From assembly GCA_010015805.1 (NCBI GenBank), contig ML978122.1, positions 3,072,453 to 3,136,452 on the forward strand: DNA of 64,000 nucleotides, written 5' to 3'. The first letter of the stretch is position 1, and each line of letters opens with the position of its first letter. This DNA is from Rhizodiscina lignyota. Taxonomy: Eukaryota. Shown in pieces: positions 4,537-42,785 of the stretch. The notes beneath the pieces were generated by a model. That model made no database searches. It saw only the letters and a list, made by a program, of their open reading frames with translations, and was not told where the DNA came from. Both the position numbers and the translations under genes were made by a program.

Positions 4537-6156
4537 TCAAAACTTGGTGTCTGGTCCTGTTCGAATAATAGCTGTGGCACCAGCCATCACATCAGGATCA
4601 TTCAGAAGCTCCACAGCCATCTGAGCAAGTGCGCGGCCGACTTTCTCAGTTTCCCTAAACGCAAATTCTGTAGCAGCAAGCAATCTGAAACCGGGTTCAT
4701 GGTTAAGTGGACAGGGAGTGACCGTTCTGTTGTAATTACAAATGTTGAAGGTTGGATGTACGGTGGCTTTGGCGACGCTTTGAAGAGTGTAGTTCCCGCC
4801 TTGTTTGACCACATCCGCTCGTTGTACCCAGGATGTATCCCCAGCAGCGGGCGGTGTAGTGGAGAAGGGGAATGTTTGGTTTCCGTACTCAGGTAACGTC
4901 ATTGTGTCGATGAATAACGACCCAAGATACGGCTCGACTTCAACTGCCGGATATATGACATCCAGACTCCAGTTATTAGTTGGCAGCAGGCTAACCACGA
5001 TGTCTATGAGACTGTCCATGTCGAGAGTGTAGCGAGTACGAAGATCGATCGTAAAGTCGAGCTCAGTTGAAGTGGAATTGTCGGGCAGATAGAATTTGAG
5101 ATTGGGGTTTGAAGCGTTAAGTGTCCGAAACGAATCGACAGACAGAGTAAGAGATCCAAGGTTGTCTGTGGCAGTATGGCCGGAGTTCCCAACAAAGCTG
5201 ATTGCTACTCCACCCTTAATATTTGGATCATCCGTAACCGTAAAGTTGGTTTGCGCATAGCCCGCATTTGCGGCCTTGATAGCATTGATAGTGTTGTTCA
5301 CTACGGTGACATTCGCTCCTACAACTCCAAGTGCAATGTCGGCCTGGACAACATTGCAAACAAATAGCCCGACATCTTCAATCAGTGACACGGTCGAGAA
5401 GGAGCCAGGTAACGTCCCCGTCAAGCTCAAGTTTCTAAGCAACACAAGAGTATTGTAAACCTCCTTGACAGCTTCAAAGTGGGTCGCTCTCTTGATTCGG
5501 ACAACAACATTTTGTCGTGCTGACAGCGGTGGAACGGCGCTTGAGCTAGCCGGATGAGCCATCATCCAAATCTGACTATCTTCAAAGGCGCCGGCGAGGA
5601 AGAGATCATGTTTTCCACAACTCTCCTCCTCGTCTGGAGTGCCAACGACAACAATGCGGCCAGGGATGTTGTAATGGACTAAAGCTTCACGGGCGAGACT
5701 AGCAGCGTATACCCCAACGAGATGGATGAGGTTATGGCCGCAAGAATGGCCAATTCCTGCAAGAGCGTCGAATTCGCAAAGAAAGCCCACGGCGGGAAGA
5801 ATCTTGTTCCCCTTCCCATGCCAATGAGAGGGCTTGTGAGAGGACTCCAGCTTCCATGCTGTCGGGAGAGTTTCTAGAATATTCGGATACACGTTCCAGT
5901 CTCCAGGCGCTCTGTTTTGGAAGTAGTCAACGGTGATTGCGTGTGCAAAGGTCTCATTCCGACCAATCTCAGGATGGTGGTAGATCTGTTTAGATATCTC
6001 CCTGAGGTCAGGGTAGATTCGATGTTCCAAGCTTTGAAGATATTTTGGCAGTGTAGAGACATCTTCCGTAGGAATACCAAAGCTGGATCCGCTCAGAAGA
6101 GTGACTAATATCAAGCCAAACCAGGCGCATCTCCATTCAGTGTAGATACGCGCCAT
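4537..6156 (-). CDS. M20 family metallopeptidase/amidohydrolase (ACY1L2/PM20D2-like) with signal peptide
   Basis: 539-aa ORF; HPEIG..E, EFDAL..IGHSCGHNLI, GTPDEE, MMAHP and NHEPGF motifs; hydrophobic N-terminus. Confidence 0.88.
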   Translation of the reverse strand: MARIYTEWRCAWFGLILVTLLSGSSFGIPTEDVSTLPKYLQSLEHRIYPDLREISKQIYHHPEIGRNETFAHAITVDYFQNRAPGDWNVYPNILETLPTAWKLESSHKPSHWHGKGNKILPAVGFLCEFDALAGIGHSCGHNLIHLVGVYAASLAREALVHYNIPGRIVVVGTPDEEESCGKHDLFLAGAFEDSQIWMMAHPASSSAVPPLSARQNVVVRIKRATHFEAVKEVYNTLVLLRNLSLTGTLPGSFSTVSLIEDVGLFVCNVVQADIALGVVGANVTVVNNTINAIKAANAGYAQTNFTVTDDPNIKGGVAISFVGNSGHTATDNLGSLTLSVDSFRTLNASNPNLKFYLPDNSTSTELDFTIDLRTRYTLDMDSLIDIVVSLLPTNNWSLDVIYPAVEVEPYLGSLFIDTMTLPEYGNQTFPFSTTPPAAGDTSWVQRADVVKQGGNYTLQSVAKATVHPTFNICNYNRTVTPCPLNHEPGFRLLAATEFAFRETEKVGRALAQMAVELLNDPDVMAGATAIIRTGPDTKF

Positions 6157-6370
6157 TGCTTCCGGCAGTACGGTAAAGAGTGCCCGATAGCGAATTGAGG
6201 TGAAAGAGGATACTCAATTGGAGATCCGCATCGGTCTACGCGCATATTTGAAGGCCAACTCACCGGTTGATGGCTCGCTCTACTTTTTGAAGTATTGGTC
6301 ACGCAATAGAAGAGATCCATTAGGTGATAGGTTAAAATCATAAAGCAGGGGATACATTGTTGACCTAACG

Positions 6371-32483: not shown

Positions 32484-33526
32484 TTTGAGCAAGGAATGGC
32501 GATGAAGAGATGCGGGAACGGAGTTTTCGAGCTATCAAGATGCCTCGTTGGCGTTCCCTTGCGCGCGCGAATCAGAGCAAGACAGCGCACCAGCTGCAGA
32601 ACACGCGATTGAGGCGTGATACGGCGCGGAAACGGCGCGAATAGAACGTTGCAAAACTTTCGAGGCGGTTGACAGGTGGCTCAGACGGCGAACGCGATGG
32701 AAATTGATGCAGGGAATGAGGTGAAAGTGATGGGGAGAGGTACTTGTGAGACGGGGGTCGATTGACGATGCTTGGCACGCTAGCACGGGAGAGGCTGGGC
32801 GAATCAAAGACCCCATAAATACCATTCTTCAGATGTGAGCGTCCCTACCATATCTGCTGCTGCTGCTGTTTTGACGATAATTGCATGAGACGGCAATTCA
32901 TGTGTGTGTTGTCTCCTTTTCCCGTGGTGGTTATGGCAATATACCGTCGAGTGAATACAGCTCATTGTCTCCTCAAGCGTAGCTTCTGCCACACATCAAC
33001 ACGCAGATATCCGGCAGTTCAAGTGGATGGGGGTACTCCTTTGATTTAGCAAATATGTATAAGGAGAATATTAGCTCTTTATGCATAGGTCCCTGCATTT
33101 CAAGTACAACATCCACCTGCATGACAGATTGGGCTGCCATTATACGACTACCCCTTTCTGCCGCCGGGCTGAGATCTATGTATGCATACCCTGCAGCCTC
33201 TCCACACCAAGAGATCAGGAACGACAGCTTTTTCTGATCGCTCCCTGATTAATTGCGGCATCAACCGCGGGTCCGAGATTTTGCACCTCTTCTGCATCGC
33301 TATTGGTTGAAGCTCATAAACCCAGATCCATGTCACGTGCCTCGTCTAGACCGACTGTGGCATTCTGAAACGGCTGGACCAAACAACCTTGAAAGTCCCT
33401 TAAGCATTGGGCATCAGCACACTCAAACAAAACTTACTGTGCTACCCTCACCACTTCCTCTCTCCAAAAGTTTTTGTTTCTGAGCCTGAGCGCCCTTAGA
33501 CCCTCTTCGGGAACACTCTAGCCGTC

Positions 33527-36434
33527 ATGTCAGACCAAGTTCACGACCACGAGCTGCAGCCTGAGGCTACTGAAGGCTTCAAGGTTGGCGAGAAGAAAAC
33601 CATCGACGAATATCAGAAGTTGGGTAAGCTTTAGATTTCATGTTCAATATTCCCGAGGCCATACCTGCCACCGCTGCATCATCGGACTACTGCCTTGGAT
33701 ACCACTGCCTTTGTGGATGACCCTCGATTATGCCTTCCAACGACGAAACACTGGACCAAAACAATGTCTTCTGGCCCTCAGGACTATGCATCCTCCACAC
33801 AAATTCCCGAGCTTCAACATCCCATACTCTCGCTCTTACCAATCATCTCAAATCGTGCGATATCTCTACACATATGCGATCGTTACTAGTTGCGATCGCT
33901 TTCATCTCATATCAAAATGTCGCTTGGCGTTCCCGGAAGAGTCCCCCCTATGCGAAAGCGAGACTGGTTCAGTCCAGCTGTCATTCCTCTCGCTATCAAG
34001 TTTTTCCCACATGCTTGCCGCAAGCTGCCTCACAAGATTTCCGAATGGCGCCGAGGGGACTCGCTGTTTGCACAGTTCTGGCGCCGAAGAGCTCAATCAA
34101 CATCCACATACTTGACCAACGAAGAAGATCCAACAATGTCCGGGGCTTTGTCACCAAGAGGGCGTAGGCCTAACCATGCTCTCCAAGCCGTCGAAGCCGT
34201 CAAAGCCAAAGTCCATAATCTCAAAGGAAGAAGACGTCTACCGGCCCGGGAAAGCAAACGCGGCCGTATTTTCGGAGCGTTCAAGATCAAAACAAAACGC
34301 AAGAAAACTCGGCCACCGCTTGATGGCTACGAGCAGGAGCAGGAGGCAATACAACCATCTCCTCCCGAAAGTCTAAAAGGGTCGGCTGTCTGTCCTTGCA
34401 ACCCCAGACGTTTTCCTCGACTTCGAGACAGCAGTGATGACGACAGTGACGTTGGCGATGTGCACACTTTGCAACTGGACAGCCATTGGTCTGTTTCAAC
34501 AAAGTCACAGAAGCAAATGACAAGATTACTTCCAACAATCACTTTCCAGGGCAGGCCTATATTCAGGAATCCATTTTCGCCGTCGGAAATCCTTCCAGAG
34601 GGCCGAATTGCTGTGGACAAGCAAAAATGCGACGGAACAACAAATGTAAAATTAGTCCAACCTCGTGAGCCGGACAGTGGGATAGGGTCGACCACCAAAC
34701 TTGTCCAATTTGAGCATCCGCCGGAGACCAGCCCTCAACTGGATCATCAACTGCCCGAACGGATGTCGCCTGTGTCTCAAAATATTGCTCGGGACACCTT
34801 ACGACGCCGCATCCGACAGGATTTCCATGAGTCGGTGGTTTTTATCAGGGGAGCAGGTATGCTAACATATTTCTTTCATGTCAGATGCAAATGATGAGTC
34901 CCTTCGTAAATGGAAGGAGTCTCTTGGCATTGGCTCTGGCACTAGTGTTTCTGACCCGAATGATGCGCGCAAGGTCGTCATCTTAAGTCTAGGCTTAGAG
35001 GTGAGCACTTCATCCATTTCAACTTCTTGTCCGACTGCAGAATGCTAAGTCAACCCAGGTCGAAGGCCGTCCCGACATCATAATCGACCTGAAGCAGCCG
35101 GGAGCGGTCGACAAGCTGAAGGACCAACCGTTCACGATCAAGGAAGGATCGACGTTCAGGATGAAGGCTATCTTCAGAGTTCAACACCAGGTTCTCTCGG
35201 GCCTGAAGTACCTTCAGGTGGCAAAGAGGATGGGGATGAGCGACAAGATGCAGGAGATGATCGTAAGTTTCGCATTGATTCATATATTTGAGCAGCACGA
35301 CAGTGCCCCTCCATGGACTTCTGCCCACACTTTTCGCTCATTGCACTCTTTCATCGATCCCCGGAGACATGCTATTGCCATATCCGTTTACGTTACGCAA
35401 AGACGGCCGCGAGCTAGGGTATGTGCTGACGCTATCACAGGGAAGCTACAGTCCGAACACCACGGACAAGCCAACTTACGAGAAGAAGTGTCAGTAATCT
35501 CCTCTTCTTCTGCTGTTAAATCTACATGCTCTTCTTTTTCGTTTATTCCCACGCCGCCCGAAGGACTGCATACCAGGAAATTTCGGCCCACGTTCCGCGA
35601 GCACGAGCCCAATGTCGACGAAGGCCGCATTAACAAGATTGGCGTCCTCTTCGCCGAGGCCAATTTTATTCTGAATGGCTTGCGTCGGACTAATCCCAAT
35701 AGTCCAAATAGTGAGTATGCGGCGCCCCATCAACCGAACGGATTTCAGCGTGGATATTCAGGATTGCATCCGTGCAACTGCCCTGTGACGCCTGGATGTC
35801 TACAACTGCCGCAGGCTCAGCCATTCAACCTCCCTATTGCGGATGGCATGCAACATACGCCTGATCCAGCGTTCTATCAGCATCCACATGCTTCACTGGT
35901 ACCTGGCGTTACTGCACCTAATGGCTGGCATCCTCCACCGGCTCCACCGTTCTACCCGCCTCCATATCCCTGGCCGACTGGATACGCCCCTGGTCCCGCG
36001 TTCTACCCGCCACCATACGTCTGGCCATATGGGTGCCCCCGTGTGATGTACGGTGCGCAACACCCACTTGCCCAGGCGTTCCACCAGCCTCCTCATGGGA
36101 CGACCGGCTACCATCCCCCTCCGATCAATGGCGCTCCACACCTGGATTCCCCGCCGCTGAACACGCAGTCCCCACTCTCCCGTAATGGACATGACTACTA
36201 CGAAGATGATGTTTACAGTGATGAGGATGGATTGTTTGTGTTTTCTATCTGCATCGCAATATGGTATTGAGCCTTGAATCGCTGACATCTGTTTTTGTTA
36301 CAGTCGAACCCCAGACCGCCCCGACCGGAATGATTGCTCGTGGCCACTATAACGCGGTTTCCAAGTTCGTCGACGACGACAACGAGACGCATCTCAAGTT
36401 CGAGTGGAGCTTCGACATCAAGAAAGACTGGTAA
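33527..36434 (+). CDS. RDI1: Rho GDP-dissociation inhibitor; exons 33527-33623, 34885-34999, 35059-35262, 35441-35489, 36304-36434
   Basis: Spliced product MSDQ...TEGFKVGEKKTIDEYQKLDANDESLRKWKESLG...FTIKEG...LSGLKYLQ...MIGSYSPNT...APTGMIARGHY...FVDDD..HLKFEWSFDIKKDW*; all introns GT-AG with branch points. Confidence 0.95.
33890..34894 (+). other. Long same-strand ORF nested in Rho-GDI intron 1 (334 codons; first ATGs at 33917 and 34136)
   Basis: Stop-free for ~1 kb within intron 33624-34884; basic and acidic low-complexity blocks; stop overlaps exon 2 in another frame. Confidence 0.5.
35263..36270 (+). other. Open frame continuing from Rho-GDI exon 3 across intron 3, exon 4 (alternative frame) and most of intron 4; Pro/Tyr-rich
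   Basis: ORF 35161-36270 shares the exon-3 frame; contains repeated FYPPPY motifs and an acidic end DYYEDDVYSDEDG. Confidence 0.5.
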
Positions 36435-36835
36435 TGTACTTTGCGACACACGTAAACGAGACTCTTGAGGATGGCAGGCGCACGGAGAGGTTGTTTAGGG
36501 AGCGGCTAGAGATCGACGTGCCTTTCACTTTTCATCTGTTTGCGAACCCGAGCCTGCATGGAGCTAGCATTTGCAGCGGTTTGCAATTGCAATTGCAATT
36601 AGCATGAGATTGATATTTTCAAGTCTGTCTTTAGCCCTCTAGAAAATTCTGAATTACACGTCATTTCAGATACACGGCATAATTCATCGGGAAGTCACTC
36701 TCATCAACCGTAATAGAAAGTCCAAGCCAGGTATACGAAGCAATAGGAGATCCATCTTATGTTGCCCAAGCCAGGGATATCGAGCTGAAACGTCGTCATG
36801 TGGTAGTGATATGCGACGCGGACCAATGTCTCTCT

Positions 36836-40091: not shown

Positions 40092-42173
40092 TTACAGAGT
40101 TGCCATCCAATTCTCTCTCTGGAGGACCTGATCATACCTCTGCCTCACGTGTGCAGCCGACCGAATGTCCTCATTCCTCGAGAACCTTTGGCTTTCCGGG
40201 ACCTCTTCATTGGTAGCAATGATGTACCTGTAGCCCGCCAGGAACAGATAGATCAGGTCAGAGCCAGCATGGCCGGCAATAACATGATTGATCAACTCGA
40301 CAGCCTTGGTATAGAAATCCAAGATGGCGAGCCGACTGTTCTTAGCCGTAAAGTCGAAGTTGGGGTTGACTTCCAAGTGCAGCGCATGCGCCCAAGCGCT
40401 GAGGATAGTGTGGATGCTAGACGACGCCTCGGCCGTCTGCACCTCAATCTCTTCATTGGATTTGGCTTTGAATTTCTTTTCACGAACCTTCATGCTTTCA
40501 GTGTCTCTCTGCGCCGGACTGGGAACGTATCGCATCTTCATGAAGTTGACCGAGGGGCTATGGTGGTGAGCTTGGCCGGAGTACCAGCATAAGCTTTCCA
40601 CGATGGTCTTGACATGGTCTTCCACGTCATCTTGAGCTACACCTTCACGTAAGAGCTCAGGAGCGCTGTCGTACACGTCTATGCGAGGCATTCCAGCAGT
40701 GTTGGGCTCCGGCGGGCCTCCAACCATGGGCGGAACGTGAACCACGAAGAGGATCCAGTGCGGTCGTTGATCTTCGGAGTTATCAGTGTCCTTCGCTGAT
40801 GCTGAGCTAGCTTCTGAGGGCTCATTATCTGCAGACTCTCCTTCAGAGCCCTTGAGCTCTGTTTCCCCCTCAGATCCTTTGCTGCTTGCTTCCTTGGAGG
40901 CTCCTTTCACCTTCTTGGGGGTGGCAGGGGGCTTCTCCATGCTGAACGGCAGACGAGGTCCTGCCTTTTCTTGAGCTTTCTTCGCATCCTCCTTCTCCTC
41001 TTTCGGGTAGTTGTAGACGTACGGGAAATAGAACACGCGTCGCGGCCGACCTACCCTTTGCGGCGAGTCCACTCCGCGCACCCACTTATTCAAATTCTCC
41101 CCGTCAATAATGCTAAATTGGCATCCACGAACGGGGTCGCTGTCATATCTAATGGACTCCGTTACGGCAGCGATGGCGGTGATGATCTCCTCCCTGAATA
41201 GGCCTTCGTTAGAAATGTTGAGCCCCTCTGGCTCAGAGTCATCACTGGAGTCGTCGCTGCTGTCAGGGTCAGACTCTTCGCCGTCCTCCTCCTTCTTCTC
41301 CGCCTCCTTGCGGACCTTCTCATTCAACGCCTGCATTCGCTTGGTGTACGTGCTCTTCAACGAGCTCGGATTTGGTGGAGCATTCTTGTCCTTCTTCTTG
41401 CTCTTCTTCGGAGTCGGGTTCGCATCCGTCTCCTTCTGTGACCTCTTCCTCTTCTTACCTGATTGCTCCTCAGAATCATCCGCTGGAGCGGGCGCAGCAT
41501 CCTTTATCTTAGTCGGCATATTATCCCCCGGCTTTGTCGGTCCTTTCAAAGTTGTCGGAGTCGGCATAGATGCTACACCACCTGCTGAAACAGGCTTAGC
41601 AGGCGTCTTTGTCGGCTGTGATACATAAGAGGCAGCGCCTGGGTCCGAACCAGGCTTCTTCGTTGCCGGCGCCGGCATATTAAACTTGAACCCGGAAGAT
41701 GCTACACCTTCCGTTGAAGGAAGTTTAGCAGGCGTCCTCGTCGGGTTTGGCACATCAGAGGCTGGGCTTGGGTCTGAAGTAGGTTCCTTCGCTGGAGTAA
41801 TGGGAGTAGAGGTAGCTGGTGCCGTCGCAGACGCGACCATATCTAAATAAGGCATTAGTTCAAGCTTCCGCGAAGCCCAATAATGGACGTTCGGAAAGGA
41901 CAAATTCAACGCTAAAGATTCCGCATCCTCGACGTCCTTTGCCGTTCTGGCTTGGAAAGGAGAGTCAGACTTACCTTGTTTGGCCCCTTCTCCCTCCGCC
42001 TCTGAATGAACACTGGTGTGGACACTGATAACGTCCGAATCATATTCGTCTGCCTTGTCCATCTCTGTCTTCTGGCGTTTATCTAACACACTGTCGATGC
42101 TTCTACCATTTGCATCTGAATGAGTGCGCTTCCGCTTTCCTGCCGGGGTGTTGATTGGGGTGAATGAGCTCAT
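40092..42173 (-). CDS. Ulp1/C48-like pseudo-protease paralog with long disordered N-terminus (frame open to 42539)
   Basis: PHWILFVVH, VYDSAP, AQ...ASSSIHTILSAWAHALHLEVNPNF; aligns by eye with the 1015-2601 protein but has Ser at the catalytic Cys position. Confidence 0.75.
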   Translation of the reverse strand: MSSFTPINTPAGKRKRTHSDANGRSIDSVLDKRQKTEMDKADEYDSDVISVHTSVHSEAEGEGAKQGKSDSPFQARTAKDVEDAESLALNLSFPNVHYWASRKLELMPYLDMVASATAPATSTPITPAKEPTSDPSPASDVPNPTRTPAKLPSTEGVASSGFKFNMPAPATKKPGSDPGAASYVSQPTKTPAKPVSAGGVASMPTPTTLKGPTKPGDNMPTKIKDAAPAPADDSEEQSGKKRKRSQKETDANPTPKKSKKKDKNAPPNPSSLKSTYTKRMQALNEKVRKEAEKKEEDGEESDPDSSDDSSDDSEPEGLNISNEGLFREEIITAIAAVTESIRYDSDPVRGCQFSIIDGENLNKWVRGVDSPQRVGRPRRVFYFPYVYNYPKEEKEDAKKAQEKAGPRLPFSMEKPPATPKKVKGASKEASSKGSEGETELKGSEGESADNEPSEASSASAKDTDNSEDQRPHWILFVVHVPPMVGGPPEPNTAGMPRIDVYDSAPELLREGVAQDDVEDHVKTIVESLCWYSGQAHHHSPSVNFMKMRYVPSPAQRDTESMKVREKKFKAKSNEEIEVQTAEASSSIHTILSAWAHALHLEVNPNFDFTAKNSRLAILDFYTKAVELINHVIAGHAGSDLIYLFLAGYRYIIATNEEVPESQRFSRNEDIRSAAHVRQRYDQVLQRENWMATL
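41570..41795 (-). repeat. Internal tandem duplication (~43-aa period) in the Ulp1-like protein
   Basis: KEPTSDPSPASDVPNPTRTPAKLPSTEGVAS vs KKPGSDPGAASYVSQPTKTPAKPVSAGGVAS. Confidence 0.7.
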
Positions 42174-42540
42174 TGTTAGTGGGATATTATCAGTAAGTGT
42201 ATAGATGTGTGGGGAAATGCGTCCTCCTATGTTTGTCAACTGTGCAGAAGTCAGTTGGTAAGAATGCGGGTCTAAGATCGCAGCAAGACTTTGAAACTGA
42301 TTGTTTTCTGTCCCTTGGAAGGTGTTGCTTGTTTCTTCGCCTGATCCGCTGGTGTCGTTGGGTGAGCTGAATAGAAACCGTTGATACCTATACATATAAT
42401 CCGTGAGATGTATAAGAAAAAAGGAAATAACGTAAAACTTAATACCACAACAGTTTGTCGATGTTGAAAAAGTACTCGTCTGGTGCGAGCAGGCGCACGC
42501 GTTTTGAACCAGCGGCGGCATTGAATGTCCTGGAGCCATG

Positions 42541-42785
42541 GAACAAAGGTTCGTGAGTTATTGACGCCTGTCGTCCTTTGAGTTCTCAAAAATTCTTCAA
42601 GGACAATTGTCCCGTCCACTTGAGAACAAGACGCTTGGAGGGCCATTGTCCTCGACTCACAAACACGAACAAAGAATTAACTCCAGTCGGCCGCCAAGAC
42701 AATGGACCATCGTCTGGAATATCAACGAAACCACAGCCCCGCAATTATTCTAGTCAGCGCGGGAGGAATTAAAGAATTAATTGTC
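42541..42785. promoter_or_regulatory. Cluster of HMG-box-type motifs upstream of the second Ulp1-like gene
   Basis: GAACAAAG 42541, ACAATTGT 42603, CATTGT 42644, GAACAAAGAA 42667, ACAATG 42699, ATTGT 42780. Confidence 0.45.

Follow-up and report, generated by a model that had tools for sequence, protein, structure and literature searches.

The Rho GDP dissociation inhibitor (GDI) is a single-copy, highly conserved regulator of the membrane cycling of Rho, Rac and Cdc42. Members of the family (fungal Rdi1, human RhoGDI1; PF02115; Protein Data Bank entries 1cc0, 1hh4 and 1doa) need the prenyl pocket of an intact immunoglobulin (Ig)-like domain for high-affinity binding, the N-terminal arm alone binding weakly; in crystal structures the Ig-like domain extends over about 138-145 residues and reaches the C-terminus. 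Here we describe the Rho-GDI gene of Rhizodiscina lignyota, found on a stretch of 64,000 nucleotides (nt) of GenBank assembly GCA_010015805.1 (contig ML978122.1, positions 3,072,453 to 3,136,452, forward strand; hereafter the window), in which intron 4 carries a long, coding-type frame that is continuous with exon 3. The nearest precedent is found in the same gene of other Dothideomycetes, where a long frame located between the first two GDI exons continues in frame into exon 2 and is annotated, fused to exons 2-5, as 'E set domain-containing' proteins of 393-816 amino acids (aa): Aureobasidium spp. (428-603 aa; P0018, P0022-P0026, P0042 and P0048), Trypethelium (393 aa; P0104), and Bathelium (816 aa; P0115). 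Conservation of the frame within Aureobasidium is 79-85% over 7 clusters, the two Trypetheliales share 57% identity over the aligned part of theirs, and no Pfam family was found for either group; a metagenome locus (L054, 115-849) likewise has a 245-codon frame that enters exon 2 in frame. These intron-1 frames may represent a nested gene, or else GDI may use them as an alternative first exon. The window resembles them in having a long sense frame within a GDI intron. It differs in that their frames lie in intron 1 and would extend the N-terminus of an intact Ig domain, whereas the present one, in intron 4, would take the place of the domain's end; their intron frames have no sequence similarity to the window.

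The explanation that we place first, though only tentatively and short of calling it probable, is that intron 4 harbours an orphan coding-type block, a passenger removed from the transcript together with the enlarged intron. In this lineage intron 4 would have grown from about 50-100 nt to 814 nt through a block of some 690 nt (35578-36270) whose sense frame codes for protein or did so until recently. The block would be an orphan frame (a proto-gene or a relocated coding fragment) specifying a disordered Pro/Tyr/His-rich peptide, and the normal GDI product would be made by removal of introns 3 and 4. Continuity of the frame back to exon 3 would most likely be a coincidence of about 2% and not a maintained isoform, and any translation would be low in level, arise from unspliced or mis-spliced RNA, and give a product with a broken Ig-like domain. 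We favour this reading because the link between exon 3 and the block lacks a coding signature, the splice sites of intron 3 are strong, no relative of the insert was found, and the read-through product makes poor structural sense.

The gene itself is a complete five-exon Rho-GDI of 198 codons on the forward strand (33527-36434), and its product is a complete 198-aa member of the family. The gene model rests on a tblastn search with P0002 (a relative's intron-free GDI protein sequence), together with Pfam profiles and junctions read from the sequence. P0002 finds all five parts in order at 81-100% identity per exon, each junction is GT..AG with consistent phases and matches the junctions of P0002 (...MQEMI/GSYSPNTTDKPTYEKK/FEPQTAP), and exons 2, 3, and 5 score above the Pfam Rho_GDI gathering score of 26.5 bits. 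The N-terminal regulatory arm and the full Ig-like domain are thus provided by one splice model; equivalence to human RhoGDI1 residues 22-202 was established on the relative P0002. Efficient removal of intron 3 would be expected because it combines a consensus GTAAGT donor, a GCTGAC branch, and a CAG acceptor. Intron 4 occupies an ancient position, in phase 1, that is common to most fungal GDI loci. If intron 4 alone is kept after normal splicing of exon 3 to exon 4, a stop follows immediately (EKKCQ and stop; frame 35279..35497).

A frame opened by a TGA inside the intron 2 donor (35002-35004) runs from exon 3 through intron 3, through exon 4 in a second frame (since 178 = 3x59+1), where it reads KLQSEHHGQANLREE, and through 781 of the 814 nt of intron 4. 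The original prediction had described this path with about 780 nt of intron 4 and a tail of about 335 aa, and both figures are borne out: 335 codons follow exon 3. The Pro/Tyr-rich strings PPPAPPFYPPPYPWPTGY and PAFYPPPYVWPYG and the acidic end HDYYEDDVYSDEDG that it had reported are present in the translation, as are its PPxY motifs (PPFY at 35944, PPPY at 35956 and 36007). Its start coordinate, 35161, does lie inside exon 3, while the frame itself opens at 35005.

The length of this frame is more than chance. None of 5000 dinucleotide shuffles of intron 3, exon 4 and intron 4 matched the tail (maximum 301 codons), and the longest open run of intron 4 alone, 259 codons, was equalled in 3 of 5000. 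For the pieces that link exon 3 to the block, the picture is one of ordinary chance: 624 of 5000 shuffles leave intron 3 open in the exon-3 frame, 1630 of 5000 leave the first 29 codons of intron 4 open, and 21 of 39 distinct exon-4 sequences have an open second frame. Given that about half of the relatives have this second frame open anyway, the proposal that exon 4 is dual-coding finds no backing here. The joint chance that all 105 codons of the link are open (intron 3, exon 4 in its second frame, and the first 29 codons of intron 4) is about 2-3%. Coordinates of these and other features are summarized in Table 1.

Table 1. Features of the Rho-GDI locus and other long frames of the window (coordinates relative to its first nucleotide).
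Feature	Coordinates	Strand	Details
Stop-to-stop open frame	35005..36270	+	421 codons; from the open reading frame list and translation
Coding-type block	35578..36270	+	230 open codons and stop TGA 36268-36270; first in-frame ATG 35848
Degenerate internal repeats	35843..36096	+	three 47-nt copies, spacings 78 and 129 nt; two tandem 51-nt copies, 73% identity
Two PPPY motifs	35956-35967, 36007-36018	+	one per copy of the 51-nt tandem duplication
Rho-GDI exon 1	33527..33623	+	MSDQVHDHELQPEATEGFKVGEKKTIDEYQKL and first base of an Asp codon; tblastn to P0002 residues 1-32, 84% identity
Intron 1	33624..34884	+	1261 nt; donor GTAAGC
Rho-GDI exon 2	34885..35000	+	profile positions 31-69, 29.9 bits; 92.5% identity to P0002
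Intron 2	35001..35058	+	58 nt; donor GGTGAGC
Rho-GDI exon 3	35059..35262	+	profile positions 69-142, 62.2 bits; shares its frame with the long open frame
Intron 3	35263..35440	+	178 nt; GTAAGT donor, GCTGAC branch 35425-35430, CAG acceptor
Rho-GDI exon 4	35441..35489	+	GSYSPNTTDKPTYEKK and one base; 100% identity to P0002; KLQSEHHGQANLREE in the long frame
Intron 4	35490..36303	+	814 nt, phase 1; donor GTCAGT, branch GCTGAC 36281-36286, acceptor CAG
Rho-GDI exon 5	36304..36434	+	stop TAA 36432-36434; profile positions 154-193, 61.7 bits; 92.9% identity to P0002
Intron-1 open frame	33890-34894	+	334 codons, ATG 34136; ends 10 nt into exon 2, out of frame with exon 2
Long open reading frames without Pfam family	40095-42557, 1018-2703, 4540-6213	-	821, 562, and 558 codons

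Coding potential was expressed as a codon log-likelihood ratio (LLR) trained on the twelve open reading frames (ORFs) of the window having Pfam families, and compared with a null in which the dinucleotides of each stretch were preserved and in-frame stops forbidden. The intron 4 frame (257 codons) reaches an LLR of 0.189 and a z of 4.9 (z 3.8 if the training set omits the disordered Eap1 gene); the corresponding values are 0.098-0.286 and 2.7-8.1 for real ORFs of the window, and -0.18 to 0.04 and -3.3 to 1.95 for spurious long ORFs. The signal begins near 35578, and successive sub-blocks give z values of 2.96 (35578-35712), 1.0 (35713-35841), 3.97 (35842-36099), and 2.8 (36100-36267); outside the internal repeats it persists at 2.9 (35578-35842) and 2.8 (36100-36267). 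A model-free test of 3-base periodicity in the block yields a chi2 of 35.2 versus 7.3 +/- 4.2 in the null. The antisense frame is not coding-like (z -0.87), and the other two sense frames, like the antisense, contain stops or have non-coding scores. In their statistics, the distal 230 codons look like coding sequence, and do so in precisely the long frame. The link (35263-35577, 105 codons) has no coding signal, with z values of -0.35 (intron 3) and -1.0 and a periodicity p of 0.37. Over the whole stretch that a retained-intron isoform would translate, the coding signature is divided: the distal 230 codons carry it, and the link that would join them to GDI does not. The block's first 90 codons contain no in-frame ATG, and so the GDI start, reached via intron 3 retention, is the sole uninterrupted AUG route across the whole block.

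Comparison with other loci sets the window apart. Among 68 metagenome loci encoding GDI relatives, 57 with complete exons 3-5 were used, several of them near-duplicates of others in the set, and 11 with incomplete matches were left out. Intron 4 measures 0-102 nt (median 55) in these loci and 814 nt here, intron 3 measures 0-131 nt (median 55) there and 178 nt here, and the frame past exon 3 closes in all 57, after a median of 25 codons and at most 137, versus 335 here. The window is an outlier on all three counts, and none of the 57 has the insert or a long intron 4. That the frame should stay open in relatives had been set as a test by the original prediction, and it appears not to: besides the 57 closures, P0003, a gene-caller read-through on a 7.6-kb contig, ends in MQEMIVSF, three codons into intron 3 (at a stop or the contig end). 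With 85% identity over exon 3, P0003 and P0002 are the two closest proteins. As far as the data reach, both the insert and the open link are lineage-specific.

The peptide encoded by the block is 19% Pro and 6.5% Tyr, and also rich in Gly, Ala, His, and Asn. Its degenerate repeats follow a unit of about [DNY]G.QH..P.AFYQHPH, and every spacing is a multiple of 3. Two of the three PPxY motifs come from the single 51-nt tandem duplication, the number expected from composition is about 0.5 (an arithmetic estimate), and the tail contains no LPxY. Between the 51-nt copies a hand count gives 6 synonymous changes and, in 6 codons, 8 non-synonymous ones, a trend towards constraint in numbers too few for significance. 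A single-sequence AlphaFold2 run produced no confident fold (mean predicted local distance difference test score (pLDDT) 47.7, predicted template modelling score 0.16) and two predicted helices at block residues 15-35 and 215-229, both weak in a single-sequence model.

These properties might instead arise without coding, from a C-rich, G-poor low-complexity stretch that slippage has expanded in multiples of 3, and that by chance has no stops and imitates coding periodicity. GC skew of -0.2 to -0.3 and GC up to 0.61 across 35700-36150 are consistent with such a compositional frame, as are the internal repeats spaced 51 and 78 nt, the 3 of 5000 intron 4 shuffles that reach 259 codons, a protein-language-model recognition score (973) within the range of shuffled sequences, and the absence of a confident fold in the single-sequence model. 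The coding signal persists outside the repeats, however, against a null with dinucleotides kept and stops removed, the remaining sense frames and the antisense have stops or non-coding scores, and Tandem Repeats Finder detected no array in the Pro/Tyr core; we therefore regard a purely compositional origin as quite improbable.

Searches for relatives of the block returned none. No homologue of 141-450 aa was found, as none of 425 word-sharing candidates scored (the 140-aa form starting at ATG 35848 lies just outside this range), and among 1.84 billion representatives of any length the sole match, P0122, is spurious, being a 1545-aa protein of repeated ILNGLLKTNPND-type units whose local likeness over 20-39 residues is summed over repeats. 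A metagenome scan yielded 53 pattern matches, none of them confirmed, the block was not matched in any of the 68 GDI loci, the ESM Atlas gave no usable neighbour, and Pfam contains no family for the block. An intron-hosted non-coding RNA (small nucleolar RNA and the like) was rejected as an identity for the insert: an Rfam search of both strands from 33400 to 36700, with E up to 1, gave 0 matches, and 0 transfer RNAs were found.

A mobile or repeated element, such as a transposon or an introner-like element, was likewise rejected. In an assembly-like run, 1 of 15,746 records aligns to the block at a likeness of at least 80% and is identical to the window, of which the run may be the source; the contigs of this run, which represent one assembly, show presence better than absence. 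No second copy of the block occurs within the 64-kb window, where only self matches were found, and its ends carry no terminal repeats. Introner-like elements of Dothideomycetes are short and multi-copy and create new introns; the insert shares with them its lineage-specific intron sequence and differs in being coding-like, about 690 nt long, present once in the assembly examined, and placed at an old intron position. Parallels also lie in two general concepts, namely proto-genes or de novo orphan frames, and C-terminal intron-retention isoforms. With these the block has in common its lineage restriction, lack of relatives, disordered predicted product, and place in a transcribed region; it differs in having codon statistics that are gene-like already and in sharing the frame of an upstream exon of its host gene.

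The original prediction was of an intron-retention isoform, in which introns 3 and 4 are kept, GDI residues 1-139 are joined to the 335-aa tail, the N-terminal arm would bind a Rho GTPase, and the PPxY motifs would recruit ligases of the Rsp5/Nedd4 type. Several observations point in its direction: no stop interrupts the frame between exon 3 and 36270 (0 of 5000 shuffles), the coding-like distal block has no ATG of its own for 90 codons, PPPY occurs twice and PPFY once where about 0.5 PPxY is expected, the link is open at a chance of about 2-3%, the repeats are kept in frame, and annotated models of other Dothideomycetes fuse long intron frames to GDI exons. Against it stand the lack of a coding signature in the link, the consensus splice signals of intron 3, the end of P0003 three codons into intron 3 (stop or contig end), and the closure of the frame by 137 codons in 57 of 57 other loci, which lack the insert. 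The origin of two PPxY motifs in one duplication also detracts from their weight.

The structure of the product would be a further obstacle. The prediction supposed that only the lipid pocket is lost, with the GTPase-binding arm retained, but the cut falls at the equivalent of human RhoGDI1 V146 (placed by aligning the relative P0002 to human RhoGDI1; 1cc0_E, E 3e-36) and removes 58 of about 138 Ig-domain residues. Read-through keeps the N-terminal arm and about 58% of the beta-sandwich, a half-sandwich unlikely to fold. From this we infer the folding consequence, namely that the whole Ig-like fold, and not the lipid pocket alone, would probably be lost; misfolding of a half-domain is likelier than a clean GTPase-binding arm.

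Nor does the product compare closely with PY-motif adaptors of Rsp5/Nedd4, which include Bsd2, Ear1/Ssh4, Sna3, and the arrestin-related ARTs. The tail is alike only in having PPPY twice within a disordered Pro-rich region; the PPxY region is of low pLDDT, and its motifs would, on this model, be accessible. The tail has no homology to any adaptor, its motifs lie in a recent internal duplication, and the peptide is only a predicted one. An adaptor would require an intact substrate-binding module, and here that part would be a truncated GDI ending at the V146 equivalent. Literature searches revealed nothing joining Rho GDP dissociation inhibitor, intron retention, and fungi; among the matches listed, those on RhoGDI, Rsp5, and PPxY contained no GDI isoform and no RhoGDI-PPxY/Rsp5 link, and no alternative protein forms of Rho-GDI turned up. 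On balance we consider the isoform quite unlikely.

The block might instead give a separate product, as a nested orphan gene or an alternative terminal exon independent of the GDI fold. Two routes can be drawn: translation from ATG 35848 would yield a 140-aa PY-motif peptide, and, if intron 4 is kept, splicing to the exon-4 acceptor from a phase-1 donor (candidates being that of exon 1 at 33623 and one at 34856 in the intron-1 frame) would reach the block in frame from upstream. The coding-type statistics and frame-preserving repeats of the block agree with a product of its own, phase-1 donors would join the exon-4 acceptor (exon start 35441) in frame, intron 1 also has a long sense frame (1 of 5000 shuffles), and the C-terminal hydrophobic stretch is predicted to be helical. 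Against this, the most coding-like part, 35578-35712, would go untranslated from a start at 35848, and compatibility of frames has a chance of 1 in 3. The hydrophobic end extends over only about 12 residues, the coding signal of the intron-1 frame is weak (z 1.2-1.7), and no relatives were found. The acceptor-like CAG at 35574-35576, where the coding signal starts, is not preceded by a CTRAY branch, and splicing to it from the canonical exon-4 donor gives an immediate TGA. A separate product is thus unlikely, if less so than the GDI-linked isoform.

Among the splice routes tried and rejected, an 87-nt mini-intron (35490-35576) that ends at this CAG and uses the canonical exon-4 donor creates an immediate stop (T/GA) and has no CTRAY branch site; a donor 2 nt upstream of the canonical one (AA/GTGTCA) is in frame but is a poor site; and removal of 104 nt from GTGAGT at 35711 to CAG at 35814 shifts into a closed frame.

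A passenger block spliced out with intron 4, and without GDI-linked function, remains the reading that we prefer, yet a number of observations weigh against it. An unselected passenger is expected soon to gain stops and frameshifts, and the repeats have diverged to 66-73% identity while all remaining in frame (spacings of 51, 78, and 129 nt). No near-identical parent copy was found in the one assembly examined, whose contigs show presence better than absence. Diverged repeats that stay in frame, together with the lack of such a parent copy, favour constraint in place, i.e. translation. The first in-frame ATG (35848) comes only after sub-block 35578-35712, the most coding-like (LLR 0.357); an upstream start is therefore needed, and the only continuous one is the GDI start via intron 3 retention. 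The openness of the link as a whole is expected at only about 2-3% by chance. Finally, an 814-nt intron with a GTCAGT donor would be a plausible candidate for frequent retention in a fungus.

Intron 1 of the window also contains a long frame (Table 1), whose open run of 331 codons was reached in 1 of 5000 shuffles and for which neither a homologue of 138-441 aa nor a Pfam family was found. Intron 1 is long in several metagenome GDI loci as well, at 1566-1591 nt in L013, L016, L020, L056, and L057 and 659 nt in L015, most loci having 52-364 nt; the frame upstream of exon 2 in those long-intron-1 loci is open for only 5-82 codons. In the broadest reading, the Dothideomycete GDI locus would be a multi-product gene whose long introns contain translated exons. 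Intron-1 frames would then extend GDI at its N-terminus, and here the intron-4 frame would exchange the end of the Ig domain for a PY-motif tail tethering Rsp5-type ligases to Rho GTPases or GDI partners. This reading is kept alive by the recurrence of long intron frames at GDI loci, which is no test for intron 4, and its likelihood appears slight.

Several other features of the gene and window were observed. An ATG in the GDI frame stands 7 nt upstream of exon 2 (34878-34886; ATGTCAG/AT..., MSDANDESL...), and the gene call of the relative's ORF P0003 uses the same start; a transcript beginning in intron 1 could encode GDI without its first 31 residues. A donor-like GTATG occurs directly before the branch sites of introns 1 and 3, giving stretches of 28 nt at 34857-34884 (GTATGCTAAC...CAG, in frame between the intron-1 ORF and exon 2) and of 22 nt at 35419-35440 (GTATGTGCTGAC...CAG). 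As candidate introns, both stretches (GTATGC...CAG and GTATGT...CAG) were rejected as too short. Tandem Repeats Finder reported two 24-nt copies with 80% matches at 35118-35167 in exon 3 (...KDQPFTIKEGSTFRMK...), probably a chance likeness in a conserved exon. Elsewhere in the window, the three long reverse-strand ORFs in Table 1 have gene-like codon scores (LLR 0.18-0.32) and no Pfam match at E up to 0.001.

For genome annotation, the locus carries a warning, in that the ab initio models of several Dothideomycete genomes already join intronic frames to GDI exons. If the block is only a passenger, it would be an orphan gene-like frame sheltered in an intron, and a candidate for studying the birth of proto-genes. 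Were it translated in frame with the GDI exons, it would represent a lineage-specific rewiring of a core polarity regulator, and a clean case of a new C-terminal coding region arisen in an old intron.

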